64,000 nucleotides of DNA from Squalus acanthias. Lineage: Eukaryota. The first letter of the stretch is position 1. Every line of letters begins with the position of its first letter. Below the pieces are notes generated by a model. The model worked only from the letters and a program-made list of their open reading frames with translations. It made no database searches and was not told the DNA's origin. The stretch spans positions 153,948,001 through 154,012,000 of the forward strand of contig CM059431.1 of NCBI GenBank assembly GCA_030390025.1, written 5' to 3'. Shown here piece by piece: positions 16,876 to 39,900 of this stretch. The position numbers were made by a program, and so were the translations under genes.

Positions 16876-17701
16876 TGTAGGGGGTTTTGGTTTGTGTCAA
16901 CTTCACCTCTGACCTCTGAGCGGTTCGAATCGCTCCCACACCCTTGGTTTTACACTTTGGATTTATTTGGGGGTTGTGATAAAAAGTGCAGCAGACAACT
17001 GCTTTAGATGCAAGAACTTTGATCTTTATTCAAGAGAGTAAAACACAACACAAACACTCTTAACACTCTAAAAGTGGGGAACACTTCGGTACAAGCGAGG
17101 GAAATAACATTAAAAGAGTACGACAGCACTCCCAATCACACTTTACTAGCTAGGCTGGACTCCAGAGGACCAGTGATGATACTCACCAGAATCCTTGACA
17201 GTTAGGTTAGTTCGCGGTTTTGAGGTTCACTCTATATATCGGTTGCTGTCTGCCGTACCCCATACGCGGTAGAGGACTTCAACTGCGTATCTGGACAGTC
17301 TTCGCGAGTCCGCTGATGCGGTAGGGTGTGTATTGGATTTATCAGGTGAGTACCAACTTTTCTTTGGTTTAGAAGTAGGTTTTAGAGTTTTTTAAGGGAA
17401 AATCTACCCAGGGATAGTCAGGAGTAGATTGTAGAGTTGAAATTTTGCGGTTCTTCGATTTTCTTCGAGTTGGTTTTCTTTGGCCGCGCTGGCCCAAATA
17501 TTGATACTTGGTGTTTGTTTGGTTGTTTCGTGAGGGCCTTGTTGCCGCGAGGTGTCCGATGGTCACTGAGGCGATCATACTGGTTTCTTCACGTGTCGGC
17601 CTACTTTGTTGCATGGTCTGGCCTTCGAGCTGTCGAACTTCTGGCTGGACACAGAACACTGAACGGTGATGTTTTTAGAACTGTGTTGCGGAGAATGCCT
17701 C

Positions 17702-20700
17702 ATAGAAACATAGAAACATAGAAGATAGGAGCAGGAACAGGCCATTCAGCCCCTCGAGCCAGCTCCACCATTCAATGAGATCATGGCTGATCATCCAAAT
17801 TCAGTACCCTGTCCCTGCCTTCTCTCCATATCCCTTGATCCCTTTAGCTTTAAGAAATATATCTAACTCCTTCCTGAATATATTTAATGAATTGGCCGCT
17901 ACTACATTCTGTGGTAGAGAATTCCAGAGGTTCACTCTCTGGGTGAAGAAATTCCTCCTCATCTCAGTCCTAAATGGCTTACCCTTTATCCTTAGACTGT
18001 GACCCCTGGTTCTGGACTCCCCGGCCATCGCGAACATCCTTCCTGCATCTAGTCTGTCTAGTGGTGTTAGAATTTTATATGTTTGAATGAGATCCCCTCT
18101 CATTCTTCTAAACTCCAGCGAGTATAAGCCCAATCGTCCCAAGCTCTCCTCATTCGTCATTCCTGCCATCACAGGTATCAGCCTGGTTAATCTTCGCTGC
18201 ACTCCTTCCATGGCAAGAACATCCTTCCTCAGATAAGGCGACCAAAACTGCACACAATACTCAAGGTGTGGTCTCACCAAGGCCCTGTACAACTGCAGCA
18301 AGGCATCCTTGTTCCTGTACTCGAACCCTTTCGCTACGAAGGCCAACATACCATTTGCGTTCTTAAACGCCTGCTGCACCTGCATGCTTACCTTTAGCGA
18401 CTGGTGCACAAGGACACCCAGGTCTCGTTGCACTTCTCCTTATCCCAATCTATTGCCATTCAGATAATAATCTGCCTTCCTGTTTTTGACACCAACATGG
18501 ATAACCTCGCATTTATCCACATTATATTGCATCTGCCATGCTTCTGCCCAATCACCCAACCTGTCCAAATAGTACTGGAGTTTATCGGCATCCTCCTCAT
18601 GGTACGCACTCCCACTTAGCTTTGTGTCGTCTGCAAACTTGGAGATATTAAATCTAATTCCCTCGTCAAGATCATTAATATATATTATGAATAGCTGGGG
18701 TACTAGAACCGATCCCTGCGGTACCCCACTAGTCACTGCCTGCCACTCGGAAAAAGAGCCCATTTATTCCAACTCTTTGCTTTCTGTCTGCCAACTAGTT
18801 CTCTATCCAAGTCAATACCTTGCCCCCAATCCCATGTGCCTTAACTTTGCACGCTAATCTCTTGTGCGGGACCTTATCTAAAGCCTTCTGAAAGTCCAAA
18901 TACACCTCTTCTACTGGTTCTCCCTTATCTATTTTACCAGTTACATCCTCAAAAAATTCCAGTAGATTAGTCAAGCACGATTTACCTTTTGTAAATCCAT
19001 GTTGAGTTTGGCCGATCCTGTCACTGTTTTCCAGATGCTCTGATATTACATCTTTTTTATAATGGACTCTACAATTTCCCCACTACCTATGTCCGGCTTA
19101 CCGTTCTATAATTCCCCGTTTTCTCTCTACCACCTTTTTTGCATAGTGGGGTAAAATTAGCTACCCTCCAATCCATGGGTACTGTTCCAGAGTCTAGAGA
19201 TTTTGGAAGATGAACCGCAATGCATCTACTATTTCTAGGGCCACTTCTTAAGTACCCTCGGATGTAGATTATCAGGCCCTGGGGATTTATCGGCCTTCAA
19301 TCCCGTCAATTTCCCTAACATAATTTCCCTACAAATACTGATTTCTTTGATTTCCTCCCTTTCATTTGACCCTATGCTCCCCGACATCTCTGGGAGGTTA
19401 TTTGTGTTCTCCTTTGTGAAGACAGAACCAAAGTATGTATTTAATTGATGTGCCATTTCTTTGTTCCCCATTATTAATTCCCCTGATTCTGACTGCAAGG
19501 GACCTACGCTTGAATTCACCAATCTTTTTCTCTTCACTTATCTATAAAAGCTTTTACACTCAGTTTTTATGTTCCTCACAAGCTTACTCTCATACTCTAT
19601 TTTCCCCCTCTTAATTAATCCCTTTGTCCTTCTTTGCTGAATCCGATACTGCTCCCAATCCTCAGGTTTGCTGCTTTTTCTGGCCAATTCATATGTCCTC
19701 TCCTTGGATCTTATGCTATCCCTAATTTCCTTTGTTAACCACGGTTGAGTCACCTTTTTTGTTTTATTTTTATGCCAAACTGGGATGAAGAAATTCTGTA
19801 GTTCATTCATGCGATCTTTGAATATTTCCCATTGCCTATCCACCGTCAACCCTTTGAGTGACATTCCCCAATCAATCCTACCCAACTCGCGCCTCATACC
19901 ATCGTAGTTTCCTTTACTTAAATTCTGGACCCTAGTCTCTGAGTCAACTACTTCACCCCCCACCTTAATGAAGAATTCTATCATATTATGATCGCTCCGA
20001 CTCAAGGGCCTCGCATAACAAGATTGCTAATGAATCCTTTCTCATTACATAATACCCAGTTTAAGATGGCCTGATCTCTAGTTGGTTCCTAGACATATTG
20101 GTCCAGGAAACCATCCCGTATACACTTCAGGAATTCCTCCTCCACAGTATTGTTACTAATTTGTATAGCCCAATCTATATGTAGATTAAAGTAGCCCATG
20201 ATAACTGCTGTGCTCTTATTGCACGCTTCTCTAATTTCCCTTTTAATGCCATCCCTAATCTCCGTATTAGTGTTTGGGTGTCTCTACAGCACTCCCACTA
20301 TCGTTTTCTGCCCCTTGGTATTTCTCAGTTCTACCCATACAGATTCTGCATCATCAGAGCTGATATACTTACTTACAATTGTGTTAATTCCCTCTTTAAC
20401 CAGTAATGCTACCCCACCTCCTTTTCTTTTTTGCCTATATTTTCTGAATATTGAATACCCCTGTATGTTGAGTTCCCAGCCTTGGTCACCCTGGAGCCAT
20501 GTTTTCGTAATCCCAATCATATCATATTCATTTACCTCTATTTGCGCAGCTAATTCATCGAACTTATTATGAATGCTCCTCGCATTAAGACACAAAGCCT
20601 TCAGGCATGTTTGTTTTACGCTCTTAGACCTTTCAGAATTATTATTTACTGTGGCTACATTTGACTTAAACTCTTGATTTCTATGGCTGACACCTTTGTT

Positions 20701-22116
20701 TTTTTCCTTCCTGACTTCTGCTTCCATCCTTGTTTCACTTTCCTCTGTCTCCCTGCTCAGGTTCCCAACCCCCTGCCATTTTAGTTAAACCCTCCCCCAG
20801 AGCACGAGCAAACACTCCCCCAAGGACATCGGTCCCAGTCCTGGCCAGGTGCAAACTGTCCGATTTGTAGCGGTCCCACCTCCCCCAGAACCGGTTCCAA
20901 TGTCCCAGGAATTTGAATCCCTCCCACTTGCACCATTCCTCTAGCCACGTATTCATCTGAAATATCCTTCTATTTCTACTCTGACTAGCACGTGGCACTG
21001 GTAGCAATCCTGAGATTACTACCTTTGAGGTCCTATTTTTTAATTTACCTCCTAACTCCATATATTCAGCTTTTAGGACATCATCCCATTTTTTACCTAT
21101 ATCGTTGGTACATATATGCACCACGACAACTGGCTGTTAACCCTCCCCTTCCAAAATGTTCTGCAGCCGCTCTGAGACATCCTTGACCATTGCAGCAGGG
21201 AGGCAACACACCATCCTGGAGTCTCGTTTGCGGCCGCAGAAACGCCTATCTATTCACCTTACAATAGAATCTACTATCACTATAGCTCTCCCACTCTTTT
21301 TCCTGCCGTCCTGTGCAGCAGAACCACCCCTGGTGCCAGGAAGTTGGCTGCTGCTGCCTTCCCCTGATATGCCATCCCCCTCAACAGTATCCAAAGCGGT
21401 ATATCTGTTTGAGAGGGGTTTGTCCACAGGGGCCTCCTGCACTACCTGCCTGCGCCTACTACTCTGCCTGGTGGTCACCCGTTCCCTTTCTGCCTGTGCA
21501 AGCTTTAGCTGCGGTGTGACCAAATGGATAAACGTGCGATCCACTTGTTCCACAGCATCGCGAATGCTCCAGTATGTATCCATTCGCAGCTCCAGCGCCA
21601 CAATGCGTTCTGCCAGTAGCTGCAGCTGGATAAACTTCCTGCACACATGGTCGTCAGGGACACAGGAAGTGTCAACGATTTCACACATAGCGCAGGAGGA
21701 GCATACCACGGCGCCGATCATATCACGGTGCCATGATTAAATCAAATCAATCCCACCAATTATACTATAATTAAATGATATAGGGCCCATGTTTACCAAC
21801 TGTCCCCCAAACACCACAGAGACCCTAGAAACTATAAACCACAAAATTTAAGATTGGAAAAAGGAGAAAAAGAGAAATACTCACCAACTAATCACTTACC
21901 TGCTTTCTGGTGACGTCACACTTTGATTATTTTTTACTACTCTCTCTCCCGCTCTCGGGGCTCAGATTGGTAAGCCTACCTGGTCGCCGTCGCCTTTTAT
22001 TGCCGCCGCCTCGCCGCTGTCGCTCCACCCAGGTCCGCCGCCTCTGTGGGCCTACCTGCTCGCTGCCGCCTTTTATTGCCGCCTCCTCGCCGCTGTCGCT
22101 CCACCCAGATCCGCCA
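17702..22116 (-). mobile_element. Full-length CR1 LINE (5' tandem repeats, ORF1, ORF2, tail), inactivated
   Basis: ORF1 ~21721-20781 (zinc finger, zipper, esterase); ORF2 pieces 20727-17801; (TTTCTATG)n tail; CCTC duplicated at 17698-17701 and 22117-22120. Confidence 0.93.
21974..22116 (-). repeat. Two ~76-bp GC-rich tandem units at the CR1 5' end
   Basis: GCCTACCTG...CCTTTTATTGCCGCC..CTCGCCGCTGTCGCTCCACCCAG occurs twice; a CRE-like TGACGTCA lies at 21912-21919 in the 5'UTR. Confidence 0.8.
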
Positions 22117-23070
22117 CCTCCGTCGATGTCTTCTTGTACTTCCTTCCTCTTCTTCTTTTAGGTTGAGAACGGGCCTTCAATAATACACATTGAAGGTTCC
22201 TTTTCTGCGCGCCAAATCAGGTCTCGGTCTTTGTAAGTTTTGGCGGGTCGTCAACAGTCACTGGTTTGTTAAGGTGTGAGGTGGTTCCAGGATGGACCCA
22301 TCCCGTTGATTTGCCACTTAATCTGAGTTTGATTGTTGCTATATTTTGGGTTTTCTTGGCTGGGCCTATGATTTGTATAGAGTATGCCGAAGTAATCTGT
22401 TTTATGCATGTCTTAATGAGCTCTGTAACTTTGGGGTGGAGACTGGTTTTCCTCGGGCTTATTGTTAGGATGCTATTGTCTGATAGGGGCCGATTTAAAC
22501 TCCCAGCGAGATCATGCGGTTCCCCAGACAGTTCCCATTAGCTCCAATACCCAAACTGTTTTTACAGAGGTTGAACTCACCTTCCTCCACAGCTTTTTCT
22601 CCCTTACAAGCCCAGACATGTTTGAAAAGTACCAAATCTTGGTTTTTGCTCAACAGGTCCTCCGGTTCGGCCCAATGCACTTCACCACCCTGTAATAGCT
22701 AGAAAGGAGTCCAAAGTCTTTTTCCTTAGGGTTTGTCTTCGAGTTTTGGGGAATCTCTGAATTTTGAGAATATTACAGTTCCCGCTGTGATACTTTACCA
22801 GCTAGAGTATCATACCGGGTGAGCAAAATTCCTGATCCTCGAGAACCAACCTTCCCCTGCAGTTTACCTATCTAAGACCCAAAACACACATTTCTCTGTT
22901 GATATAGTGTTCAGATGCAGGCACAGGTAAGAATCCAGTTACATTCACATCCAAGCATGGAGGGGGTCCCACACCCCTGCACCAGTTGGAAAGTATTACA
23001 TACATAGCAAAAATAATAATACACATTCACAAAAACTTTATTCATTTTAATAAAACAATTCAGACTCGCC

Positions 23071-25416
23071 CTAAACCTGGCCATAGGCTTTATTGTAATG
23101 CTGGTCCCATTCTTTCTCATGTCGGGATCGGAACACTCTGTCCTTTCCCTTGCATTTTGTGCACAGTAAGTAGAGAAGTATGCCAAGCTGGCAGACCAAT
23201 AAAATATGGGAAGCCATTCTAATCCAGAAAGGGACCTCTATATTTTCGAAAATATCCCACCAGGGTGGAATTATGATGCCTGAAATCTCGGCCCCTATCT
23301 CGACTGTCTTTTGTTCCAGAGTGTAGAAATGTTGTTGCGATACTTGTACTGCTTTGAGTAGGGCGGTAAAATGTTCGGGTAGAGGAGCAATCTTATAGCC
23401 GAAGAATGTGACATACTTTTGCAGATTGGTAATGTTTTCCCTGACAGTGAGGTGAACAGTTGAGGTTTCAGGAATCGGTACAATCCGTTCCTGGGCCACT
23501 TGAACTTCTGCCTCGGGTTTAAAGCAGAAACTACTGTCACTTACCGGACACCAGATGTGCTGTCCATGGTGGTAGTGGGGCGCACTTGTGGTGACACGAT
23601 ATGTCCCACCCCCTATGAATGCTACCTATGGGGGAACATGGCCTTGTGCCATTACCTCCATGCTACAGTTGATATTTCGTGCGCCAGCAGCTTTAAACCC
23701 ACACTGTGGTCTAGAATAGGCATTCAAGTGCTGGGGACACAGTATTATGTGTGCACCCCGGCTCCGGCACCTGGAGAGTTCAGTACCCGTCATAGCGTGC
23801 TCCCACTTTATGACATAAGGTGGGACCGCTGCGAAACGGACGTGTGCACCCCCTTGAATGACCCTAATGTTCTCCACCCTTTATACCGGTGCGGGACGGG
23901 CTGTCCCACCCATGACCGGCATCCTCACCACTATCCACATGATAGAGTGATTGAAACGCCCACAATCTACAGGGATTGGGCAGGCTTCAGAGGCTAGGCG
24001 GAGTTGACATGGGCTCAGCGAATTGCTAAACGGGAGGAGGGCTGTGAGGTGTTAGTTGCTAATCCAGGAGGGGACTAAACTTTGTTTTATATCCTCCAGG
24101 TTGCTGCGGCCCTCGCCCAGCAACCATGCCCCGTATAGCACACACACCTCATTCTGTGCAGCCTGATCCGAAGCATTCCTATCCTCCCGTATGAGTGCAT
24201 TTACTGTTTTTGCGTGTCTCTCCAGCTCAGAAATAATCTCCTTTAAATGGACCGTCATAGTTTGGTCCTCGTGTAGCTCTGAGTTTAAAACTGTGTTTTC
24301 TTCCGTTAGGATCTTTCTCAGTTGTGTTTTTAGACCATGTATCTGTGTTTACTTTTCTATATCGTCCAGGCTATTTATGACAGAGGATCCTGTATTGCAG
24401 GTTGTGAAAATATCGTTGCAGGTCCCCCTTCTCTGTCTCCCTGCGCCCATAGTATGCTCTGCGTGTAGTTTGTACAGCTCTGCTTTGTCTGTGTTGGCAA
24501 AGTCGAATTCGTAGAATTTCCTAAACATCTCTTTCAGCAGGGCCTGGTATAGCTCTTCTGTCTCCTTAGGACACCACTCAGGTAAGTCTACCTCGGTAAG
24601 GTTTAGGATCACTGAAGCTATTGCATATTGTACCCCCTGGCAGAGTACATTTTCGGTCGGCACTAGCACTAGCACATTCTCTGGTCCCTTGGTGATGGTA
24701 GGACACCTCTCTATCACTGTCCGTGATGTCGTGGGCGTGGGCAGGGGCTTTCGTGGGCATGCTAGTAGTTCGGTGGCGTTGACTGGGATCGGGGAGTGTG
24801 GGAGCGTACACCCATGTAGGCTAGAGTCCCACCCCATCCCCTTCCCGGCATCTTGCCATTGCCTGGAGAAGATGATGGATATGCCTGTGGGGCAGTCTCT
24901 CTCTGATCCTTTCATACAGACATAGATTCCCTGTTCTGACTCCCACCACTTGTCCCAACAAACACTCACACCCCCTTAGGTCCCTGTGATCGGCCGGTAG
25001 CTGTCGTTCCCCATTCGTTCCCAGCCAAATGTACGGTCCCCTATGTCCCTCCTCAGCTTCCTGAGCCACCACCACCTATCCAGGGGAATCCGTCCCTTGC
25101 AGGTGAGACACACATGTTTCCCCTCAGTGACACTGTCCCTTTTGACAACGACCTGTACCCTGGGGCACGGGATGGAGGCCTCCCCGTATGTGAACCCGGT
25201 CTGGCTGGAGTATTCTGTAGAATAAAACCCCAGCCACCCTGGCCAGCTTCCCTCATGGAAGTAAATAGCGAGCCCCTCCACACCCGGTTTGCCACCCCCA
25301 GCTGTAACGATCGGCGCTCTCTCTCCCGAGCAGCCATAAATGTGGGAGTCCTCCACGTCACCTTCGTCGCCGATGCTCACCCCTACCAGGGCGAGCAGGA
25401 GCAGAACCCTTGTCAT
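23071..25416 (-). pseudogene. env: ERV envelope glycoprotein, ~780 codons in one frame with several premature stops
   Basis: ORFs starting at 25416, 24969, 24258, 23877 and 23499 share a frame. Signal peptide MTRVLLLLALVGVSIG, furin site RQRR, heptad region, Cys-rich region and TM ILLVCQLGILLYLL. Confidence 0.88.
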
Positions 25417-25579: not shown

Positions 25580-28309
25580 TTAAACTCTGTACATACGCCG
25601 CCCGTCTCTGGACGGACAGGCTAAATCCTGTATGGCCTCTGTCTTGCAGCTTCTGTGCAGCCTGTACACCTGGGCGTAAGTTGGCCTGTACCGCAGGACC
25701 TTGAGAGTCCTTCTTAAAACAACTGAGGGTTTCCCTGAATCCCTGATAATCCGGGGAGTGTCCCCTCCTGTGCTACAGCACTCCGCCCCATTTGGTGTGG
25801 CTGCTGAGGCACTGTCCTGTCCTGTGGGTTCCTCGCAGCCTGTGGCCGCTGCCTGGGGATCCCTTTTCTTGGAATTACCCCTGACTTTGGCTATTCTCTT
25901 TCGGGTCGCAGCCCTTGCTGGGCTGAACCATTGAAGCTCTGGAGTCCACGATAGTTTTGGCTGTGGTGTGCGAGGAGACCGTCTTAGGACTCCCGCTACC
26001 GAGGGTGCGTCCGAGTCCCACATAATTGGTGGCGTGGCCCCTCCGGTGCGGTCTGTGAGTCTGCCACAGCTGCTTGCTGAGGATCTCTACCTTTAGGGCG
26101 TATCGCCTTTGCTGGCTGTTCCCCTTTCGGTTTAAACAGCTTACACTGGTTCATGTGGAATCACTTTGTCCGGCGGGGCATCGTTATGGCGTAGACCATG
26201 GGGCCTGACTTGTCGACAACGCTGTACAGCCCCATGTATAGTGGTTCCAAACTCTCTACCCGGGCAAAATTCCTAACCATGACCTGATCCCCTATCTCTC
26301 ACTCGTGGTGCTTGCGGGGTTCTAGCAGCAGTCGGTTACTCCGATGCTGTTTTCCCATGTTGCTAGCAGCCTGCCAGTGAACCTGTTTAAGGTTTTCAAA
26401 CAGATTCCTGACGAAGCTGTACCGGTTCACCTCACTGAGCTGAACCTCCCTGAGCACCGGGGCTAGCACATGGGTGGGGGTCCGCATAATCCTGCCAGTC
26501 ATTAGCTGGTGTGGGGAATACCCCGTACTTTTTGACTGGCTAGCTCGGATCCCCATTAGGACCAACGGTAAAACTTCTACCCTCTTCTTGGGCGAGTCTC
26601 CCATTTCCTTCAGTCGCCTTTCCTTAATGGTATGGTTTAACAACTCCACAGGACCCGATCACTGCGGGTTGTGGGCGATGTGCCATTTCCCTTCGATGCC
26701 GAGTACCGTGAGGGTCTTCTGCATGACCTGCCCGGTAAAATGACACCCATGGTCGATCTCCACAAACAGCGGTAGTCCCCATCGTGAGACAACTTCCCTG
26801 ATCAGAATCCTAGCCGTACGCAATGCGGTAGCAGTACGGCAAGGGAACGCTTCCACCCACTTAGAGAACACATAGACAAGGACTAGTTAGTAATTAAAGC
26901 CTCCCTGGGCGGTGGGTAGGGGCCTGATGTAATCTACCTAGATCGACAGCCATGGTCCTTCGACCCTCCTGATGAGTCCCATAGATACCTTCCTTTTCTG
27001 GGGGTCTGGGATGTTAGCAGCACATACCAAACAGCCGGCACAGAACAAGCAGACTTCTTCCCTCAGTCCTGGCTACCATCCTGTCTGTTCCACCCGTTGC
27101 CAGGTGGTCTCAGTTCCGGGATGCCCCGCTCCTGGACCCTCATGGGCCAATTGAAGGAATTCCCTTCTAAGCGGCACCACCCACTGCTCCCCCCTGAACA
27201 GCATGCCTTTCTTAACGGTGATGGCTGCTCTGCCGTACGGGCCCTTTATCTTTTTCCCCTTTTTCAAGGGCGTTCAGGACGGCCTTGAGGAGGGTATCCT
27301 GGGCTTGGGCCTGTTTTAAGTCCGGGGCCAAGGCTACCCCTTAGGTGCCTCCCTTTCTCCGGATTGCGGCTACTGGACCAATTTGCTACGGATCGCAGAA
27401 CACTCCATCCCTGGCCCCCTGTTTGGCCAGCTCGTCTGCCTTACAGTTACTCTCCCAACTGGGCTCTGTCTTTGAATGGGCCTTGACCTTATGGTTATAG
27501 ACCTTCCCTTCCTCCCCCACAGCCGCATGATTTTCTCCAACAGGGGCTTTATGGTGAGGGGTCTCCCATCAGCGGAGTTATTTCCGCGACGGGACCAGAT
27601 GGCCAGGTACTCCGTACACGAATTGCATGTGAACATGCTGTCCGAGCAAATAGTGTATGGTGTAGGGAACTTCTCGGGGTGTGTAACCACGTACACTACC
27701 GCGGACAGTTCAGCCTGCTGGGCGCTCATGGTGCTGGGGAGTTTAATTGCCAGGGCAATGCCTGCCTCCTGGTCATAAACTCCACACCCGGTGAGTTGCT
27801 TGCCAGAAGATACTGTGCTCGAACGGTCCACATAGATTTCGCGGCCTGTGGGGTGTATCCCGGCCCGAAAACCAATATGACTTCCCATACCCCTTCAATG
27901 GAACACCGGTGGGCTGTCCCTGGGTAGATCATTTTGTCCGCGAGCTAAGACTCGCAGAGACCTTTCACCCTTAGGTCCATCTTGGAGAGAAGCAGGGTCC
28001 AGCGAGCAATACGGGCACTGCTCACTGTCCCGTCTTCGATTCTCCCATCTAGGAGCATCTGGGTGGTCGTGTGATTGGTGAGCAGGGTGATCGGAGATGT
28101 GCCTGTGAGGATCAGTGATCTTTTCACAGCCCAGTGAGAGGCGAAGAGGTGCCACTCACAGTTGGAATAGCCCTTCTCCACATCGGTGAGTATCCTGGAG
28201 GAGTAAACCACCGGTCTCAGCCGGTCGTGCCTCTATTGGAGCAGCACGGCACTCAGACTGTCCCCGCTGGCTGCCACTTCCAGGAAAAGCTTACTCTCCC
28301 CATCAATAG
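25580..28309 (-). pseudogene. pol: ERV pol 3' part: tether, RNase H, integrase and C-terminal extension
   Basis: VYSSRILTDVEKGYS (tether); IYVD..SAQQAEL..ICSDS (RNase H); H..GH..CLVC, FSKWVEAFP, IDHGCHFTG and GPVE (integrase). Confidence 0.9.
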
Positions 28310-28696
28310 GTGCAGAACATTCTGGAGGGGGAGGGGGAACAGCCAGTTGTCGTGATACATGTTGGTACCAACGACGTAGCTAAAAAAAGGGAAGAGGTCC
28401 TACAAGTAGAATTTAGGGAGTTAGGAGCCAAGCTAAAAAGTAGGACCTCGAAGGTAGTAATCTCTGGATTACTACCAGTGCCACGTGCTAGTAAGAGTAC
28501 AGAGAACAGGATAGTTAGGCTAAATACGTGGCTTGAGCATTGGTGTAAGAGGGAGGGTTTTAAATTTTTGAGGCATTGGAACCAGTTTTGTGGTAGGTGT
28601 GACCTATACAAAAGGGACGGTCAACACCTGTGCAAAGATGGAACTGATGTTCTCGGGGTAATTTTTGATAAAGCAGTTCGGGAGCATTTAAACTAG
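28310..28696 (+). CDS. CR1 ORF1 C-terminal SGNH/esterase-like domain (5'-truncated)
   Basis: VVIHVGTND, VVISGLLPVP and DGQHL motifs; open to TAG. Confidence 0.85.
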   Translation: MQNILEGEGEQPVVVIHVGTNDVAKKREEVLQVEFRELGAKLKSRTSKVVISGLLPVPRASKSTENRIVRLNTWLEHWCKREGFKFLRHWNQFCGRCDLYKRDGQHLCKDGTDVLGVIFDKAVREHLN

Positions 28697-31638
28697 TATG
28701 GCAGGGGGCTAGAAACCTATGTAGTGAAATAGAGGAAAGTGAAAGGCAGACAGAAATAAATGGTAAAAGGGTGAGGAACAAAAAACAAAGGGCCAAACTA
28801 ATTCATAAAAAATGTGAGCATAAAAAAAGCCTGAGGGTTTTATACCTTAATGCGAGAAGCATCAGGAACAAGGTAGATGAATTAGCTGTGGAAATAGAGG
28901 TTAATAATTATGATCTAATTGGGATTACGGAAACATGGTTGCAGGGTGAGCAGGGCTGGGAGCTTAACATACAGGGGTATTCAGTATTTAGGAAGGATCG
29001 ACAAAAAAGAAAGGGAGGAGGGGTAGCATTGCTGGTAAAAGAAGGGATAAATGCAATTGAAAGGAAGGATATTAACTCAGTTAATACAGAATCTATATGG
29101 GTGGAGCTAAGAAATAGCGAGGGGCGAAAAACATTAATAGGAGTGGTATATAGGCCTCCAAATAGTAAAATAGAGGTTGGGGAGGGCATCACGAGGGAAA
29201 TTAGAGAAGCGTGCAATAAGAGCACAGCTGTCATCATAGGTGACTTTAACTTACATATAGATTGGAATAGCCTAATCAGTAAAAATAATGAGGAGGAGGA
29301 ATTCCTTGAGTGTTTAAGGGATGGTTATCTGGATCAATATGTCGAGGAACCAACTCGGGAACAGGCTATATTGGACTGGGTACTGTGCAATGAGAAGGGA
29401 CTAATTAGTAATCTTGTTGTACGGGGACCCTTGGGTCAGAGCGATCATAACATGATCGATTTCTCACTCGAAATGGAGAGCGAAGAAATTGACTCAGATA
29501 CTAAGGTCCTGAATTTAAACAAGGGGAATTATGATGCCATTAGACGGGAACTGAGTAGGTCTGATTGGACAACGTTCCTGGGAGGACTGGAGGTAGATAA
29601 ACAATGGCAAGCATTGAAAGATAGAATGACAAAATTGCAAAAATTGTTTATACCAATCTGGCATAAAAGGAAATCTAAAAAGGTGACTCAACCGTGGATA
29701 ACAGGGGAAATTAGAGACAGCATAAAATCCAAAGATAGGGCGTATAAAATAGCCAAAAAAAGCGCCAGAGCGGAAGATTGGGAACAGTTTAAGATAGAGC
29801 AAAGGAGGACAAAGGGCTTAATCAAGAGGGGCAAAATAGCTTACGAAAGCAAGCTGGCGGAAAATATAAAAACTAACTCCAAAAGCTTTTATAAGTATAT
29901 CAAGAGGAAAAGACTGGTGAAAACCAAAGTTGGCCCATTGCAGTCAGATACGGGGGAATATATAACGGGAAATAAGGAAATGGCAGACCAACTAAATGCA
30001 TACTTTGGGTCAGTCTTTACGAAGGAAGACACAAAAAACCTCCCTGGGATATCGGGAAAAATAGGGACATTTGCAAAGGAGGAACTGACGCAAATCAATA
30101 TCTCTAAGGATATGGTGTTAAGGAAGCTAAAGGGATTGAAGGCGGACAAATCCCCAGGGCCTGATAACATGCATCCTAGGGTGCTGAAGGAGGTGGCCCT
30201 AGAGATAGCGGATGCACTAAGTATGATTTTTCAGAATTCATTAGACTCGGGAACAGTGCCCATGGATTGGAGGGTAGCTAACGTTACCCCACTATTCAAA
30301 AAGGGGGGTAGGGAAAAAGCAGGTAATTACAGACCTGTAAGCCTTACATCAGTTGTGGGCAAAATGCTGGAGTCCATCATTAAGGATGAAATAGCGGAGC
30401 ACTTAGCAAATGGGGACAGGATAGGACAGAGTCAACATGGATTTACAAAGGGTAAATCGTGCTTGACTAATCTATTGGAATTTTTTGAGGGAGTAACTGG
30501 TAAAATAGATGAGGGAGAGCCAGTAGATGTGGTGTACCTGGACTTCCAAAAGGCCTTCGATAAGGTCCCACATAAAAGATTAGCAGGGAAAATTGAAGCT
30601 CATGGGATAAAGGGGAAAGTATTGACGTGGATAGAGAACTGGCTGTCAGATAGAAAACAGAGAGTTGGAATAAACGGCTCATTTTCTGAATGGGAGGCAG
30701 TAACAAGTGGGGTAGCGCAGGGATCTGTCCTGGGTCCCCAGCTGTTCACAATTTACATTAATGACCTGGATCAGGGAGTCGGATGCAGCATTTCCAAATT
30801 TGCAGACGACACTAAACTCGGAGGGGGGGTGGGCTCAGAGGAGGAGACCAGGAAGCTCCAGAGCGATTTGGACAGACTGGGTGATTGGGCGGATAAATGG
30901 CAGATGCACTATAATGTGGACAAGTGCGAAGTTATCCACCTTGGGTGCAGGAACGGGAGGGCAAATTATTATTTAAATGGCAATAAATTGGGAGAGGGGG
31001 AAGTACAGAGAGACCTGGGTGTTCTTGTACACCAGTCACTGAAGGCGAGCATGCAGGTGCAACAGGCGGTCAAGAAGGCAAACGGTATGCTGGCCTTCAT
31101 AGCAAAAGGGTTGGAATACAGGAACAGGGATACCTTGCTGCAGCTGTACAGGGCACTGGTGAGACCACACCTCGAGTACTGTGTACAGTTTTGGTCGCCT
31201 CATCTGAGGAAAGATGTTCTTGCCATGGAGGGGGTGCAGCGGCGATTCACCAGGCTGATACCAGGAATGGCGGGATTGACCTATGAGGAGAGACTATGTA
31301 GTTTAGGGATGTACACACTGGAGTTTAGAAGATTGAGAGGGGACCTCATAGAAGTGTATAAAATTCTGACAGGTCTAGACAGACTAGATGCAGAAGGAAT
31401 GTTTCCCTTGGCGGGTGAGAACAGAACTAGAGGACATAATTTAAGGATAAGGGCTAAACCATTTAGGACAGAAATGAGGGGGAATTTCTTCACTCAGAGG
31501 GTGGTGAACCTGTGGAACTCATTGCCACAGAGGGCAGTGTACGCCAGCTCATTAAATATATTTAAGAGGGAATTAGATATATTTCTACAGGCAAAAGGGG
31601 TTAAGGGTTACGGAGAGAAGGCGGGGACGGGATACTGA
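28672..31638 (+). CDS. Intact CR1 ORF2: APE endonuclease plus reverse transcriptase
   Basis: Frame is open from 28672 (track: 955 aa from GTG 28771). Motifs YLNARS, GITETW, YRPP, GDFN, SDH, QHGF, FADD and RGH. First in-frame ATG is at 29452. Confidence 0.95.
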   Translation, partial: SSSGAFKLVWQGARNLCSEIEESERQTEINGKRVRNKKQRAKLIHKKCEHKKSLRVLYLNARSIRNKVDELAVEIEVNNYDLIGITETWLQGEQGWELNIQGYSVFRKDRQKRKGGGVALLVKEGINAIERKDINSVNTESIWVELRNSEGRKTLIGVVYRPPNSKIEVGEGITREIREACNKSTAVIIGDFNLHIDWNSLISKNNEEEEFLECLRDGYLDQYVEEPTREQAILDWVLCNEKGLISNLVVRGPLGQSDHNMIDFSLEMESEEIDSDTKVLNLNKGNYDAIRRELSRSDWTTFLGGLEVDKQWQALKDRMTKLQKLFIPIWHKRKSKKVTQPWITGEIRDSIKSKDRAYKIAKKSARAEDWEQFKIEQRRTKGLIKRGKIAYESKLAENIKTNSKSFYKYIKRKRLVKTKVGPLQSDTGEYITGNKEMADQLNAYFGSVFTKEDTKNLPGISGKIGTFAKEELTQINISKDMVLRKLKGLKADKSPGPDNMHPRVLKEVALEIADALSMIFQNSLDSGTVPMDWRVANVTPLFKKGGREKAGNYRPVSLTSVVGKMLESIIKDEIAEHLANGDRIGQSQHGFTKGKSCLTNLLEFFEGVTGKIDEGEPVDVVYLDFQKAFDKVPHKRLAGKIEAHGIKGKVLTWIENWLSDRKQRVGINGSFSEWEAVTSGVAQGSVLGPQLFTIYINDLDQGVGCSISKFADDTKLGGGVGSEEETRKLQSDLDRLGDWADKWQMHYNVDKCEVIHLGCRNGRANYYLNGNKLGEGEVQRDLGVLVHQSLKASMQVQQAVKKANGMLAFIAKGLEYRNRDTLLQLYRALVRPHLEYCVQFWSPHLRKDVLAMEGVQRRFTRLIPGMAGLTYEERLCSLGMYTLEFRRLRGDLIEVYKILTGLDRLDAEGMFPLAGENRTRGHNLRIRAKPFRTEMRGNFFTQRVVNLWNSLPQRAVYASSLNIFKRELDIFLQAKGVKGYGEKAGTGY

Positions 31639-31735: not shown

Positions 31736-33209
31736 CCCCTGGAGCCGGTGCGGTCTGCAGATCTTTCTTTAACTTGAGAAAGGCTGCCTCGCAACCCTCG
31801 TCCAAGGCCCACTCTACACCCTGTGCAGGAGTCAGAGCAGAGGGGCTGCGGTGTCTGCATAATCCTCAATAAAATCTCTGCAGTACCTGGTTAGCCCTAA
31901 AAAGGATCTCACTCCTGTGACTGTGTTGGGGGCTGGTAACTCTGCACTGCTTCCCTCCTAGCTTTGTCGATGGCCCTTTCCCCAGCGTGCATAGTTAGCC
32001 CTAGGAATTTTACTTCCAGTTGACCGATCTGTAACTTTTTGGGGTTTACCTTGAAGCCTTCTTGCCGGAGCAGCTCCAGCAGTTCAGCCAGTAGTGGACC
32101 GTATTCCGCTCCCTCATCGGTAAACAGGAGTAGGTCATCCACATACTGTATCAACTGCCGGGGCCGGCTGAAGCCATTCAAACAATTCGCCATGCATTGG
32201 TGAAAAATGCTAGGGCACTTGTGGAAGCCCTGAGGTTGGCAGTTCCAGGTGTACTGTTGTCCTTTAAAAGTGAAGGCGAACTTGTACTGGTCCTCTCTTC
32301 GTAAAGGGATTGAAAAAGCCCGTTGGAAATGTCCAGCACTGTGAAAGTGGTCGCAGATGCTGGGATACTTCCGATGAGGTCGGCGACGGCTGCTACCGTG
32401 GGTGCACAGGCGGGGATGTTACGTTTGAGTACCCGATAGTCCACTGTGGCCTTCCAGGAGTTGTCCGGTTTTCTAACCGGCCACAGTGGAGAGTTTACGT
32501 GGGTGGCTATCGATCTCAATATCCCCTGTGTTACTAAAGAAGCCATGGCCTTTTCCATGTCGGCTTCTGCCTCCCTGGGGAAATTGTATTGCTTCTGTGG
32601 TTGGGTCATGGGGTCCCCGCTGACAATAACCTCGACCCCGTTTACCCTCCCATAATCGTGCTTGTGATTGGCAAATGCTGCGAGGATTACTCGCACAAAT
32701 GCCTGGTATGCCATCGTAGTGTTACTGACCATTCGTTCGAGTTCGTAACCTTCCTTTGGTTTCAGGGTGCAAAAGTTCCCCTTGCCCTGTTTCCCTGGGA
32801 TGACTGCCACTTCACTTTCTCTGCCGGTACATGCTCCCCACAGACAGTGGTTCCTAAGATCCACTAGAATCCTATGGCCTGTGATAAAGTTGTCCACCAG
32901 GATCCCCGTCCCTTCCCGTTCCCAGTTCATCAAGACACAGGTCCACTTGGTGTGGAGTGCTCCTAAATGAATAGACAGCGGGATGGCGAACGAGCCAGCC
33001 TGCTCGTTACCTGTAAACCCCACTAAACTGTACGGGGCCCCATTAGACAGAGGTGAGGCGGCGGAGTTCGCTGAATAGACTATGGTGCTGAAAGTTCCAG
33101 TATCTAACAGATAAGTGACTTTCATCTTCTCCACTTCCATCTTAACGAGTGGTCTCTTCCATGCGTCGTACTACAAGAGACACAGGTGGACAGGCTGCGC
33201 TGGTTCCAG
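31736..33209 (-). pseudogene. pol: ERV pol 5' part: aspartic protease and reverse transcriptase
   Basis: LLDTG; QKQY..NSPLWPVRKPDNSWKATVDYR; FTVLDISNG; QYVDDLLL. Confidence 0.92.
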
Positions 33210-35389
33210 TCATGAGTCTGAGTTGGGGGGTGGGGGCAATGGGGCTAAAGCACCAGTGGCGGTGGCAACTTTCCCCGGGCCGTTGACTAGAGCTCGGATT
33301 ACGGCCATGACCGAGTCTAGCGTGGGGGAAGTGGTCGGTGCTTCGCTGCTTGGGGCAGGAGCTGGGGAGTTCTTCCCTACGTTATACTTCCACGGATTCC
33401 TACAGTCTTTTCTCCAATGCTAAATCTTCTCGCAACCGAAGCAGTTACGATTCGTGTCGGAAGCTTCCTGGTGCCACTCTTTCCTGTTACTAGGCCTTAT
33501 TAGGGCAACACTGTGGCATAGTGGTTAGTACTGGTGCCTCATAGCGCCAGGGACCCGGGTTCGAATCTTGACCTCGGGTGACTGTCTGTGTGGAGTTTGC
33601 ACATTCTCCCCGTGTCTGCGTGGGTTTCCTCCGGGTGCTCCGGTTTCCTCCCACAGTCCAAAAATGTGCGGGTTAGGTTGATTTGGCTATGATAAATTGA
33701 CCCTTAGTTTTACGGGGGGATTAAATATGTGGGGTTGTGGGGATAGGATGGGATATGTTAGGGGGAATTAAATACGTGGGGTTACGGGGGTAGGGTGGGA
33801 TATGTGTACTGTGGGGATTAAAGCAGGGACATGGTACTGGATTTGGATGATCAGCCAATATCGTATTGAATGGTGGAGCAGGCTCGATGGGCCGAATGGC
33901 CTACTCCTGCTCCTAGATTCTATGTTTCTATGTTTATTTCGTGGATCTTTCCCTCAGGTGGGTGCTCTTCTGTTCCTCTACCATTCCGGTAAGCCAGGGC
34001 CAGTGGTCTGACCACTGTCTCCTCGGTGACCCGGGGGTCGTTCGGGTCAAACCACAGCTCAGATTGGCCCTGAACTGTGGCAAGCTGTTTGCCACTCGGC
34101 TTCGGAGCCAGTGGGCCAGCTCATTCTGATTCAGGTGAGCCCGGTCGAGAACCCCATTACAGGCTCTCCTGTACACAGGCCACAGTCGGTCTGTGAATGC
34201 CTGTGGGGTCTCCCCTACTAGCGGGGTTGTCTTCTCCACCCAGGAGAAGGGACAACCATCATTAATTCCCATGGCCTCCAGAACTTCCTCCCGGATAGCA
34301 GCGTATCCACCCTGCCCTCTTTTACACTCTGCAGAGAGGGACTGGTAGATTTTCCTATCTAGGGAGAACAGGAGCATTTTTGCCAGCACGGCATCATCGC
34401 AGACTTTGATACCCGCTGCCTGTTCCACTTCCATGAAGTGGACTGAGGGGTCTCCTTTTTGGGTGAGCTTGCCCAGGTTTTTTTATCATAGACTTAAGCT
34501 GTTGGGTGCCATGCGGAGCCACGAATTGGATTTCAAGGGGTCCTTGACTCCCACCACGACCGGGCGTGCCAAACATTTGCTGCCGGACCGGGCACATCGG
34601 CCCCGGCTCCGACGTTTACTGCATTGGTTCGCCCTCCCCTCCCTGCTGCCAAATCGAGTCAAAACCCGGCGCCACAGGTGGTGGTGTACACTCCCTGCCA
34701 GCCTCACAAATCGTCCGTCCCTCCTGCTGCCAAACCGGGTCGTTCCCCGGCGCCACAGGTGGCGTCCGAACAGTTTGCCTTTGCATTTCCAGTTCCACCC
34801 GGTCCGCACCCGGGCTTAGTCGGCATACCACGCCTTTCGCCCTGGACAGACCAAGGATCAAGCTCTCGATTTGTTTCTGGCAGGGACCGTCATCTCCCGC
34901 CTCATATCCCCTCGTGTTTGCTATCTTGTAAGCGGCCTGGACGCCTCTCAACCTCTCCTCCTTCTCTCTTACTTGTTTGGCCAGGCGAGTGTTCTCTTCC
35001 CGCAACAACAGTTCACTGGTTTTAGCTTCGGTGACCTGACACTGAAAATATTCCTGCCTGTCTCCGTGTGTTTCCACTAGCTGCATTTTTTCCTGATTTC
35101 GGATGGTTAACTCATTCAGTAATGTTTCCCCTGCTAGGGCCCTTGCTTGAGACAGCTGAGCAGACACCTGCAGTTCTGCCTTAAGTGCCTCAACACGTTT
35201 GTCTAACAGATGGATCTGTCGCTGGGAGCAGGTCAACCAGATGGCCTTTTCCACAGATTTCTTGTCGTCCTTGCTCTAAGTCCATTTAGCTGCAGCGTCT
35301 ATTGGACGCTCAGCACGCAACAGACTGAGTAACCATTTCTTGGTTATGTTCACTTTCTCGAACACATAAGAGGAAATTCTCACTTCCAT
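33210..35389 (-). pseudogene. gag: ERV gag: coiled coil, Pro-rich repeats, capsid-like region, CCHC knuckle
   Basis: AAGATGG start at 35389 is in frame with ORF 35254-34616; capsid-like GETPQAFTDRL; CFGCEKI*HWRKDC at ~33400-33445; TGA at 33212-33210. Confidence 0.82.
33502..33933 (+). mobile_element. Full-length V-SINE (HE1-like) with CR1 tail, inserted in gag
   Basis: A/B boxes, V-domain, duplicated G-rich unit and CR1 3'UTR; TTATT duplicated at 33497-33501 and 33934-33938. Confidence 0.92.
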
Positions 35390-35449: not shown

Positions 35450-36929
35450 CACGGTCGGTTTGTGTCAGATTCACCTCTCCACTGAGCGGTTCGAATCGCA
35501 CCCACTCCCTTGGTTCTAGACTTTGGACTTATTTGGGGGTTGTGATAAAAAGTGCAGCAGACAACTGGTTTTAATGCAAGGATTTTGATCTTTATTCAAG
35601 AGAGTAAAACACAACACAAACACTCTAAACACTCTAAAAGTGGGGATAAACTTCGGTAAAAGCGAGGGAAATCACATTAAAAGAGTACGTCACCCCTCGC
35701 AATTCCACTTTACTAGCTAGTTGGACTCCAGAGGACCAGGGATGATACTCACCAGAATCTTTGACAGTTAGGTTAGTTCGCTCTTTTGGGGTTCACTCTA
35801 TATGTCGGTTGGTGTCTGCTGTACCCCGTACGCGGTAGAGGACTTCAACTGCATATCTGGTTAGTCTTCGCGAGTCCACTGATGCAATAGGATGCGTATT
35901 GGATTTATCAGGTGAGTACCCACTTTTCTTTGGTTTGGAAGTAGGGTTTAGAGTTACTTAATAGAACATCTTACATAGGGGTAAGTCAAGAATAGATTGC
36001 AGATTGGAAATTTTGCGGTTCTTTGGTTTTCTTCGAGTTGGTTTTCTTTGGGCGTGTTGGCCCAAATATTAATACTTGATGTTTGGTTGGTTGTTTCGTG
36101 AGGGCCTTGTTGCCGCGAGGTGTCCGATGGTCACTGAGGCGATCATACTGGTTTCTTCACGTGTCGGCGTACTTTGTTGGATGGACCGGCCTTCGAGCTG
36201 TCGACCTCCTTGCTGGACACGGAATGCTAAATGGTGTTGGTTTTTGAACTGTGTTGCGGAGAATGCCTCCGTCAAATGTCTTCTTGTTCTTCCTTCCTCT
36301 TCTTCTTTTACAAGTTGAGAACGGGCCTTCAATTATACCCATTGAAGCTTCCTTATCTGCGTGCCAAATCAGGTCTCGGATCTTGACGGTTTTGGCGGGC
36401 TCGTTAACGGTAACTGGTTTGTTAAGGTGTGAAGTGGTTCTGGGATGACCCCCATCCTGTCAATTTGCCAATTAGTCGGAGTTTTATTGTTCTTATGTTT
36501 TGGGTTTTCTTGGCTGTACCTTTGATTTATATGGAGTAGGCCGAAGTAATCTGTTTTATGCATGTCTTAATGGACTCTGTAACTTGGGGTGGAGACTGGT
36601 TTTCCTCGGGTTTATTGTTAGGATGCTAATGTCTGATAGGGGCCGATTTAAACTCGCAGCGAGATCATGCAGTTCCCCAGACAGTTCCCATTAGCTCCAA
36701 AACCCACACTTTTTTTTACAGAGTTTGAACCCACCTTCCTTCACAGCCTTTTCTCCCTTACAAGCCCAGACATGTTTGAAAAGTACCAAATCTTGCTTTT
36801 TTCTCAAAGGGTCCTCCAGTTAGACCCAATGCCTTTCAGCACCCTGTAATAGCTAGAAAGGAGTCCAAAGTATTTTCCTTACGGTTGTCTTCGAGTTTTG
36901 GCGGATCTGTGAATGTTGAGAATCTGACA
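35450..36929 (-). repeat. 5' LTR
   Basis: Uninterrupted homologue of the 3' LTR; donor at 35747-35753, AATAAA at 35591-35596. Inner boundary uncertain by ~10 bp. Confidence 0.88.
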
Positions 36930-39900
36930 GAGGCAGTCACGCCCCTTCCGTTAGGTAGTGGCACAGGTCTGGTTAGTGTTCGGGGTCAGGAGGGTGTGGA
37001 CTGCAACTCAGGCAGGTAAGGGGACCCCGGGTGCCGTGCTGGAGGAGCCTCAGCCTTTGTCCTTGTCCAACAGGTATGAGGTTCTTGCTTCAAGTGTGGA
37101 TGAGGGAAAAACCCGCAGGATGGATCAGCAAGCTGACCATGGCACCATGGTGCAGCAGGACATTCAAGTGGGGTGTGTGAAAGTAAATGTAGTTGAGGTA
37201 GGGGCAGTATAATCATGGCGATAGATACTGTTCTCTGCAGCCACGACCGATTGTTCCAAAGGTTGTGTTGCCTGTCCGCTGCCATGGTCGAAGACACATC
37301 CTCGCGGCTGGAGGAGAACTTGTAGTGGCGGGGGCGGGGGGGGGGGGGGTTGCGGGGTGGGAGGTGGTTTCCAGTTGTCGTGGTCCACGTAGGAAACAAC
37401 GATATAGGTAGAACTGGGAATGCGGTTCTGCTGAGGGAGTTCCCGGAGCTCGGATTCAAATTAAAAAGCAGGACCCCAGAGCTAATAACCTCTGGATTGC
37501 TACCTGAACCACGAGCAAATTGGCATAGTGTCAGTGAGATCAGAGCATTGAATGGTTGGCTAAAAATTTGGAGTGGGAGAAATTTATTTCGATTCATGGT
37601 GCACTGCCTTCAGTACTGGGGAAAGAGGGAATAGTTCTGTTGGGACGGGCTTCACTTCAACCATGTTGGGAGCAGTGTCCTGGCGAATCGAATAATTAGG
37701 ACTACAGATAGGGCTTTAAACTAAAAAGTGGACGGGGGCGGGGGGTTGGGGTGTGGTGTCCGGTGTGGGGTAATTTAGAAAGTTAGCGAGAATGGACATG
37801 GCAATAGTGCAAGGTAGCGCTAGTGGTAATGATAACCAGAGTGCGACAGGAAGGGACATAGCGTACAAACGTAAGTGTGCACGAGCAAATAGGGTCAGAA
37901 TAGGGAAAATTGTAATAAGACAAGTTTTAAGGCACTTTATCTAAATGCACGCAGCATTCCTAACAAGATCGATGAATTGACGGCACGAATAGAAATAAAT
38001 GGGTATGATCTGATAGCCATTACAGAGATGTGGTTGCAAGGTGACCAAGGCTGGGAACTGAATTTCATGGGATATTTGACATTTCTGAAGTATAGGCAGA
38101 AAGGTAAAGGAGGTGGTATACCTCTGTTCATAAAGGATGAGATCAGCACAGTCGTGCGAAATGATCTTGGCTCGGAAGATCAAGATGTAGAATCAGTTTG
38201 GGTGGAGATAAGACATAGTAAGGGAAAGAACTCACTGGTGGGAGTAGTCTAAAGGTCACCTAACAGTAGCTACACGGTAGGACAGAGTATAAATCAAGAA
38301 ATAATGGGGGCTTGTAAGAAAGGTACTGCAATAATCATTGGCGATTTTAATCTCCATATAGATTAGACCAATCAAATTGGCAATGGTAGCCTTGAGGATG
38401 AGTTCATAGATTGCATTCGGGAAGGTTTCTTATAACAATACGTTGTGGAACCAACCAGGGAACAGGCTATTTTAGATCTGGTAATGTGTCATGAGATAGG
38501 ACTAATTAATGATAAAGGATCCTCCAGGAAGTGTTATCATAGAATGTAGATTTTCACATTCAATTTGAGGGTGGGAAACTTTAGTCTGGAAATAGTGTCT
38601 CAAACTTTACTAAAGGCAATTGCAAAGGTATGAAGGCAGAGTTGGCTAAAGTGGACTGGGGAAGTAGATTTAAAGGTAAAATTGCAGATAAGCAGTGGCA
38701 GACATTTAAGTAGATATTTCATAACTCTCAACAAAATATATTCCAGTGAGAAAGAAAGATTCTACGAGGAGGATGAACCATCGTGGCTAACTAAGGAAGT
38801 TAAGAATGGTATCAAATTGAAAGAAAATGCATATAATGCTACGAAGATAAGTGGTATGCCAGAACATTTGGATTTTTTTAGAAACCAGCAAAAGATGACT
38901 AAAAAATAATAAAAAGGTGGAAAATAGATTATGAGCGTAAACTAACAAGAAATATAAAAACAAACAGTAAAGCTTCTCCAAGTATATATAAGGAAGAGAG
39001 TAGCTAAAAAAAAAGTGTTGGTCCCTTAGAGGCTGAGACTGGGGAATTAATAATGGAAAACAAGGACATGGCGGAGACTTTGAACACATATTTTGCATCT
39101 GTCTTCACGGCAGAATACACTAAATGAATACCATTAATAATAGATAATCAAGGGGCAAAGGTGAGGGAGGAACTTAAAACAATCACTATCAATAGAAAAA
39201 AAGTACTAGGCAAACTAATTTGACAAAAGGCTAACAAATCCCTTGGGCCTGATGGCCTGCATTCTAGCGTCTTAAAGAAGTGGCTGCAGAAATAGTGAAT
39301 GCATTGGTTGTAATCTTCCAAGGTTCACTAGATTCTGGAAAGTTTCCAGCGCAATGGAAAACCGCTAATGTTACTTTCCTTTTCAAGAAAGGAGCGAGAC
39401 AGAAATCAGGAAACTATAGGCCAGTTAGTGTAACATCTGTCATTGGGAAAATGCTGGATTCCATTATTAATGGAGTAGCAGCACGACTGTTAGAAAATCA
39501 TAGTACAATCAAGCAGAGTGAACATGGTTTTATGAAAGGGAAATCGTGTTTGAAAAATGTATTTGAGTTGTTTGAGGATGTAACGATCAGGGTGGATCAA
39601 GGGGAATCAGTAGATGCAGCGTAATTGGATTTCCAAAAGGCCTTCGCTAAGGTACCAAATAAAAGGTTACTGCACAAGATAAGAGCTCACGGTGTTGGGG
39701 GTAATATATTAGCATGGATAGAGGATTGGCTAACTAACAGAAAACAGAGAGTGAGATAAATGGGTAATTTTCAGGTTGGCAAACTGTAACTAGTGGGGTG
39801 CCACAGGGATCAGTGTTGGGGCCTCAACTATTTACAATGTATTTCAATGACTTGGATGAAGGGACCGAATGTACTGTAGACAGGTTTGCTGAGGATACAA

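Follow-up and report, generated by a model that had tools for sequence, protein, structure and literature searches.

The window, the whole stretch of 64,000 nucleotides of Squalus acanthias DNA that was analysed, contains an endogenous retrovirus that is oriented on the minus strand and interrupted by LINE sequences. All features of the provirus given below are on the minus strand. The 5′ LTR, the extent of which was set by its likeness to the 3′ LTR, occupies positions 35457..36930. Fragments between the LTR and the protease (33934..35275) have no Pfam match and are probably pieces of gag, as judged from their position. The protease and reverse transcriptase (RT), also in pieces, are located at 31909..33170 (Pfam RVP E 0.017, RVT_1 E 3.4e-21). 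The pol gene is split between the RT and the tether by a plus-strand LINE (28303..31638), which we take to be of the CR1-like type, with an uninterrupted open reading frame of 988 aa at 28672-31638. The subsequent region (27370..28232) encodes the tether, recognized by eye from comparison with an open-frame Pol, and RNase H (Pfam RNase_H E 3.6e-10). The integrase region (26299..27273) is in pieces, and peptides from its reading frames match the integrase of the open-frame Pol by eye; the single piece that was scanned has no Pfam match. It is followed by a low-complexity frame (25580-26086, minus strand), which has no Pfam match and the counterpart of which in the open-frame Pol is a C-terminal extension of approximately 190 aa. 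The env gene (23071..25416) is a single frame with five in-frame stops, at 24976, 24349, 24052, 23881, and 23626. The first piece of the 3′ LTR (22117..22778) is 88.3% identical to the 5′ LTR over 668 columns, and the second piece (16889..17701; 89.5% over 816 columns) lies beyond another LINE insertion, a piece of approximately 17702-22116 that divides the LTR. The LTR identity of 88-89%, together with the five in-frame stops in env, indicates that the window copy is old and dead. The named relatives of the proteins from the window come from skates and sharks.

The env frame encodes a signal-like segment, a 67-aa leader, a domain with an immunoglobulin (Ig) pattern, a linker, an F2-like part, an RQRR motif, an F1-like part, and an anchor. 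The start codon and a hydrophobic segment resembling a signal peptide are at 25369..25416; residues 2-11 form a helix in the model, and the segment may function as a signal. The 67-aa leader that precedes the Ig domain (25168..25368) is conserved, with dN/dS values of 0.16-0.35, has no family match, and was modeled with low confidence. Its conservation from skate to the Squalus acanthias genome is 55-69%. The Ig-like domain of approximately 100 aa (24868..25167) is interrupted in the window copy by a TAA codon at 24978-24976. It is separated from the fusion core by a loosely constrained linker of 53 aa (24706..24867), the second half of which is rich in Pro, Thr, and Ser. The F2-like part (24427..24705) ends in the furin-type RQRR site at 24438-24427. 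The F1-like part (23071..24426) contains the remaining four in-frame stops and is composed of long helices, a Cys-rich beta region, the membrane anchor at approximately 23217-23161 (minus strand), and a tail. In the Env protein P0003, the RQRR site is at residues 327-330, followed by helices at 331-444 and a hydrophobic anchor at 734-752. The peptide following the RQRR site is weakly hydrophobic (mean hydropathy -0.25), and the values across six related Envs span -0.25 to 0.35.

The preliminary description of this DNA proposed that a peptide read through the stop at 24976 has the hallmarks of an Ig domain, and both the peptide and its Cys, Trp, and GxYxC strand are present in the minus-strand frame. 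The codon of the B-strand Cys is at 25101-25099, and three Trp residues are encoded 9-11 residues downstream, at 25074-25066 (minus strand). The F-strand motif is E-Q-G-I-Y-V-C, with its Cys at 24918-24916, 61 residues past the B-strand Cys. Members of the Ig superfamily are characterized by a B-strand Cys, a C-strand Trp, and an F-strand (D/E)xGxYxC, with 55-75 residues between the two Cys; the Env domain has this pattern and spacing. The skate protein has the D form of the motif. The range proposed previously for the domain, 24905..25165, is too short, as the model places the G strand within the domain, which therefore extends to approximately 24868. The Thr/Pro-rich stretch PLPTPTTSRT, described as the linker, is found about 58 residues past the F-strand Cys. 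In an open-frame copy, the Ig domain contains six Cys and eight Trp residues.

Profile searches link the domain to the Ig superfamily with modest scores. The Pfam family Ig_3 matches the domain of the window copy, with the stop read as X, with an E-value of 0.024, and the corresponding region of three open-frame copies with E-values of 0.0009-0.0028; an open env frame was found in three of 20 further loci picked for long frames. The best Ig_3 score of 20.1 bits (E 0.0009) is below the Pfam curated cut-off of 30 bits, as are all the other Ig scores. The profile of the domain retrieved eight sequences from the PDB at E ≤ 10, of which six belong to the Ig superfamily, and the best of them, CRTAM, improved from E 0.025 to E 0.0065 when a wider alignment was used. 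ESM Atlas features give a value of 0.91 to Ig clusters. Searching the PDB with the single Env sequence from the window gave chance matches only (lysozyme, E 0.05).

The AlphaFold2 model of the domain, calculated from 14 sequences, has seven strands (pLDDT 66.7, pTM 0.53), which, within the limits of a modest model, agrees with the seven-to-nine-strand beta-sandwich of Ig domains. A Foldseek search with the model returned 57 matches at E ≤ 0.001, and those listed are of the V type, with E-values of 2e-4 and TM-scores of approximately 0.55. The structure neighbors identified by VIA include TREM-1 (Z 7.5, rmsd 2.8, 94 aligned residues), NKp44, and pIgR, with Z-scores of 7.5-6.9, as well as CD300; chagasin is tied with them at 7.4, and all these values are below the VIA caution line of Z 8, under which a match may reflect merely a common arrangement of strands. 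The C′/C″ region, which differs between V-set and I-set domains, contains a two-residue strand only (pLDDT 56-69); the best structure matches are of the V type, and the best Pfam match is to Ig_3. Each of these lines of evidence is modest, and in combination with the residue motif they make it very likely that the Env domain has an Ig fold. The positions of the strands in the model suggest that the four extra Cys residues could form two more disulfides, one between strands B and E and the other between strands A and G.

The Cys/Trp/Tyr pattern of the predicted Ig fold is conserved in the family, which has at least 150 copies in the 3.7-Gb genome. Across 61 copies, Cys106, Trp117, and Gly163 are present in all 61, Tyr165 in 58, and Cys167 in 60; the four extra Cys are conserved in 61, 60, 61, and 60. 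These loci were recovered with queries that include the Ig domain. The core-only query P0014, which was run besides, matched at least 150 loci, and in all 30 of those examined the domain is present, is approximately 65% identical, and retains every one of the nine key residues. The 30 loci constitute one subfamily and therefore are not 30 independent cases. This further subfamily (L078-L107) has many dispersed copies in which env is open for more than 800 codons; 40 sampled pairs of its members are 90-99% alike (median 94%).

The dN/dS ratios were calculated by the Nei-Gojobori method for four subfamilies comprising 18 of the 61 loci, in six non-independent contrasts. The values are 0.11-0.22 for the Ig domain (upper bootstrap bound ≤ 0.49) and 0.11-0.17 for the core; the linker, with 0.30-0.61, is the least constrained part of the protein. 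Purifying selection on the Ig domain is as strong as that on the core. It is also present in skate, sawshark, and two further records, with identities of 58-76%; between the skate protein and the family from the window, the Ig domains are 58% and the cores 70% identical. The conservation across copies and species indicates that the Ig domain had a function in a virus that was replicating and is not an accident that followed insertion.

A copy at G000:C3696 (L072, L073), positioned within a tandem repeat array, has LTRs of 1120 bases that are 98.4% identical and have TG...CA ends. A pair of LTRs was obtained for one of the five other copies tried; the windows of the remaining four missed the LTRs. 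Contigs of four putative RNA runs from two other organisms cover the Ig domain, and represent related DNA or RNA, not expression. In shark annotations, pieces of env are joined to gene models of zinc-finger, Niban, cadherin, and fbxo15 proteins (P0006, P0007, P0008, and P0037). The joins are likely annotation chimeras, with exonisation as the alternative.

The remainder of Env is predicted to be a paramyxovirus-F-like fusogen. It has the features of class Ib fusion proteins of paramyxoviruses and pneumoviruses: a basic cleavage site, a long helix behind it, and a C-terminal anchor. The model of the full Env (pLDDT 55) is good in the core and poor in the first 235 residues, and the Ig head is unplaced relative to the core (pTM 0.39). 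Foldseek matches the Env model to the F proteins of hPIV3 (E 2.2e-10) and RSV (E 8.6e-10), with a TM-score of 0.27 by query, which is low because parts of the Env model are unsure. Matches among viral models include those of a lispivirus, baculovirus F, and walleye and foamy virus Envs. The predicted Envs of the walleye epsilonretroviruses WEHV-1 and WDSV match the F-type model with E-values of 1.6e-9 and 1.1e-8, respectively. F proteins are absent from the matches of the sequence profile search with the whole Env, and the likeness to F therefore rests on structure. By eye, P0003 does not contain a CC dipeptide, and the CX6CC pattern of gamma-type TM is absent. The results from Pfam, the domain model, Foldseek, and VIA back the previous proposal of an Ig fold fused to an F-like fusogen.

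The F-like Env led to the element being filed first as a lokiretrovirus, an assignment that was dropped after comparison of the RTs. The traits shared with lokiretroviruses are the tether and RNase H in Pol and the F-like Env. However, the RT motif is PQG in the window element, in contrast to PFG in all 24 of the published lokiretrovirus rows (by eye; PMC7947760 data set S2), and the headless N-termini of published lokiretrovirus Envs, described below, also argue against the assignment. The 67 Pol matches include no lokiretrovirus Pol with which the element could be placed relative to that clade. By eye, the RT motifs fit the row of snakehead retrovirus (SnRV) better than the lokiretrovirus rows, and the RNase H motifs are also shared with SnRV (PMC7947760). 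The closest Pols are frog proteins with identities of 37-42%, or 50-54% in RT alone; the closest of all, P0072, carries PF17917 and PF00075. A search of viral contigs with a single RT gave no match. The RT of the fish retrovirus record L076, which matches the SnRV row by eye (PMC7947760 data set S2), is 42.5% identical to that of the element. In a quick tree of 26 chosen RT rows, selected without lokiretroviruses, foamy viruses, and ERV-L, the element and L076 belong to the same 20-row retroviral clade as opposed to Ty3/gypsy (SH-aLRT 100), unpaired and with an open fork inside the clade. The Pol tree was a quick one of 65 of 68 Pols, and the tree of Env cores comprised 12 chosen Envs. The Env core of L076 aligns weakly but collinearly to that of the family (hhalign E 2.6e-4, probability 42%, 263 columns), and L076 Env matches the relative P0038 with a BLASTP E-value of 1e-5. 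SnRV is included in clade Huo, among class III-related ERVs, in the text available of PMC6001957, and SnRV-like lineage I ERVs occur in elephant shark according to the accessible part of PMC4422223. The element thus resembles SnRV in its RT and RNase H motifs, alignable Env core, and Ig-like Env start. It differs in that the Ig-like segment of L076 is short, perlecan-like, and unalignable, frog Pols are nearer to the window element, and the tree does not pair the two. On these sequence comparisons, we tentatively designate the element as SnRV-like (clade Huo).

A search of cluster representatives identified 46 Env relatives. Full-length distant relatives share the core at 20-31% identity, and the 120-190 residues upstream of it are not aligned by BLAST to the Ig head. 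The heads of P0015, P0038, P0025/P0045, and L076 appear to be Ig-like, and all the scores are weak. The head of bamboo-shark P0015 is Ig-like by its UniRef name and matches Pfam Ig with E 0.11; the Ig-like label had already been given to the protein by automated annotation. That of P0038 matches V-set (E 0.0015) without the canonical Cys. The head of frog P0025, which has no match in a Pfam scan, is clearly homologous to that of P0045 (E 4e-25) and weakly to that of P0038 (E 8e-5). Residues ~83-188 of P0025 match an antibody heavy-chain V domain with a best E-value of 0.0033 and include a WGxG-like J-segment motif. Antibody chains, a class over-represented in the PDB, account for 28 of the 29 PDB matches of this head at E ≤ 10. 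The Env frame of L076 is 1134 aa long, with about 500 residues ahead of the core, and it opens with an Ig-like segment (L076:6191-6460) that matches V-set with E 0.07 and perlecan Ig with E 0.04. One strand motif of this head is nearly identical to that of perlecan, and the head aligns to the Ig head of the window family over 21 columns only. The profile of the Ig head exceeds 500 of 500 shuffles on P0015 (5.8 bits) and P0025 (9.0 bits), and it fails to exceed all 500 on P0045, P0038, P0016, and P0026.

Searches with Pfam and the profile did not detect an Ig signal in the heads of shark P0016 and P0026, and the ESM Atlas gave no usable match for P0026. The N-terminal 120 aa of the two proteins form a Cys-rich head without a family match. 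Their core belongs to the group nearest to the window family in the tree of 12 chosen Envs. A single sawshark species has both types of head; P0026 was not found in genome G000 in a search at E 1e-60.

The segment is probably a conserved V-like Ig domain, as predicted from its sequence and model, that serves as the attachment head of a predicted F-type fusogen in an SnRV-like ERV family. After cleavage at the RQRR site, the Ig head would stay on the surface subunit, from which it would reach out on the linker and bind a host surface molecule. F1 would then refold and fuse the membranes. By analogy, the head may do the job that is carried out by a separate attachment protein in paramyxoviruses or by an inserted receptor-binding domain in foamy viruses. 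The position of the domain in Env, its conservation, and its loose linker support a role in attachment. However, the Ig domain is no more variable than the core within the genome, and slightly more variable between species, although variability is common in receptor-binding heads that face antibody pressure. The headless Envs of lokiretroviruses, which indicate that an F-type Env can function with no such domain, likewise speak against this role. The slot for the head may be exchangeable, as other Ig-like domains or unrelated ones occupy it in related Envs.

The origin of the heads can be considered separately, as both possibilities below are compatible with the domain being an attachment head. 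It is quite possible, though not probable, that the Ig-like heads are descendants of one old viral beta-sandwich and not of one-by-one host captures, with the function as above or vestigial. The preliminary description called the domain a captured module; this was not borne out, since a host donor gene was not found in the genome search, where the matches listed are family copies, and the best lead is the CRTAM match at E 0.0065. A host gene is beyond the reach of this search because it fills with copies of the family. The failure to find a donor, the scores of the Ig-head profile on P0015 and P0025, and the homology among the P0025, P0045, and P0038 heads all favor a single ancestor. Nevertheless, any Ig domain would exceed shuffles, the best PDB matches differ from head to head, and the L076 head has its near-exact perlecan strand motif despite aligning to the window family over so few columns. 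A more tentative possibility is that, in a broad and little-studied lineage of SnRV-related retroviruses with cartilaginous fishes, frogs, and bony fish as hosts, the N-terminal socket of an F-type fusogen has been filled repeatedly by different host Ig-superfamily domains, changing receptor use through the capture of adhesion or immune modules. The fillings suggested by the matches would be CRTAM/CADM-like in the window family, antibody-VH-like in frogs, CEACAM/SLAM-like in P0038, and perlecan-like in SnRV.

A role of the Ig domain as an immune decoy or modulator is unlikely; in this case, virions and infected cells would display it as a mimic of a host V-type immune receptor or ligand that damps the response, while the core does entry. 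Its nearest neighbors in structure and sequence are the immune receptors TREM-1, NKp44, pIgR, CD300, and CRTAM, and headless lokiretrovirus Envs demonstrate that F-type Envs can work without a head. Nonetheless, the matches to immune receptors have 10-12% identity, no better than titin, chagasin, and other sandwiches, which tie with them, and so reflect the fold only; with its extra Cys and eight Trp residues, the domain is now far removed from all host proteins, unlike a mimic. It is also improbable that the domain is a structural cap that packs on the prefusion trimer to stabilize or shield it without binding a host molecule: a constraint equal to that of the core, four extra conserved Cys and many Trp residues suggestive of a rigid packed unit, and the peripheral location of foamy virus receptor-binding domains on the prefusion scaffold (in the available part of PMC11468914) would fit such a role, but the loosely constrained 53-aa linker separates the domain from the core, and the unalignable domains in the slot of sister Envs are easier to reconcile with a loosely attached appendage than with a tight interface.

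As an attachment head on an F-type core, the domain can be compared with several known systems. Lokiretroviruses share with the element the gag-pol-env organization and the tether and RNase H (accessible text of PMC7947760 and PMC9040795), and their Envs have a signal, an RxKR-type site, a coiled coil, an anchor, a likeness to the F proteins of paramyxoviruses and pneumoviruses, and a similar GP-x-x-G start. In contrast to the window family, the lokiretrovirus core begins right after the signal in all 22 Envs with a visible N-terminus of the 23 published (PMC7947760), a comparison based on the first 200-330 characters of each protein. The fusion peptide of those Envs is strongly hydrophobic, whereas the segment after RQRR in the window family is weakly so, and cartilaginous fishes are not among the hosts listed in the part of PMC7947760 available. 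Foamy virus Env also combines an F-type core with its own receptor-binding domain, since there is no second attachment protein (accessible part of PMC11468914), and the model of feline foamy virus Env matches with E 3.7e-4. However, the foamy virus domain has approximately 330 aa and is inserted inside the core, whereas the window family has a 100-aa Ig domain ahead of it.

The preliminary description regarded the architecture as foreign to retroviruses, but Ig-like N-terminal heads are standard in type-C gamma Envs, according to the available text of bioRxiv 10.1101/2024.03.17.585361. Gamma-type Envs are described there as having an N-terminal IgV-like receptor-binding domain and a proline-rich region, and Env-Dbi as having a SIRP-derived IgV head that comes from a host gene. 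The RBD-C domains that MLV, FeLV, and Env-Pb1 carry, as well as Env-Dbi, share with the window family the N-terminal Ig fold and the proline-rich joint to the surface subunit, and heads are exchanged between lineages. The differences are in the core, which is of the orthoretroviral gamma type instead of the F type, in the B-F disulfide, the Cys pair of which is missing from RBD-C but kept in the window family, and in the donor, as Env-Dbi aligns clearly to SIRP whereas the window family has no clear donor. The capture of nectin3 by CrocERV31 (accessible part of PMC4299795) also concerns a non-mammalian ERV, a host Ig-superfamily adhesion gene, and purifying selection. There, however, a whole three-domain nectin that is 76% identical to the host protein replaces env, whereas the window family has one diverged domain fused in frame.

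Retroviral Envs with an Ig head are known already, and an ERV is known to have captured an Ig-superfamily gene; the new element is the F-type core. No description of such a head, whether for an F-type Env or for the Env of SnRV, was found in the literature searched, which consisted largely of papers available without subscription and included the accessible parts of PMC9040795, PMC13709493, PMC10699275, PMC9967133, and bioRxiv 10.1101/2023.10.26.564294. The F-type retroviral Envs described so far are either bare, as in lokiretroviruses, or have a large inserted receptor-binding domain, as in foamy viruses. The family from the window would represent a third layout, with a small Ig domain in front, that mirrors the layout of gamma-type Envs although the fusion core is unrelated. 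Should the related heads derive from different host genes, the single reported capture of an Env head from a host would become a recurring route, and the small soluble domains could be used as probes for the receptors of these viruses, including that of SnRV.
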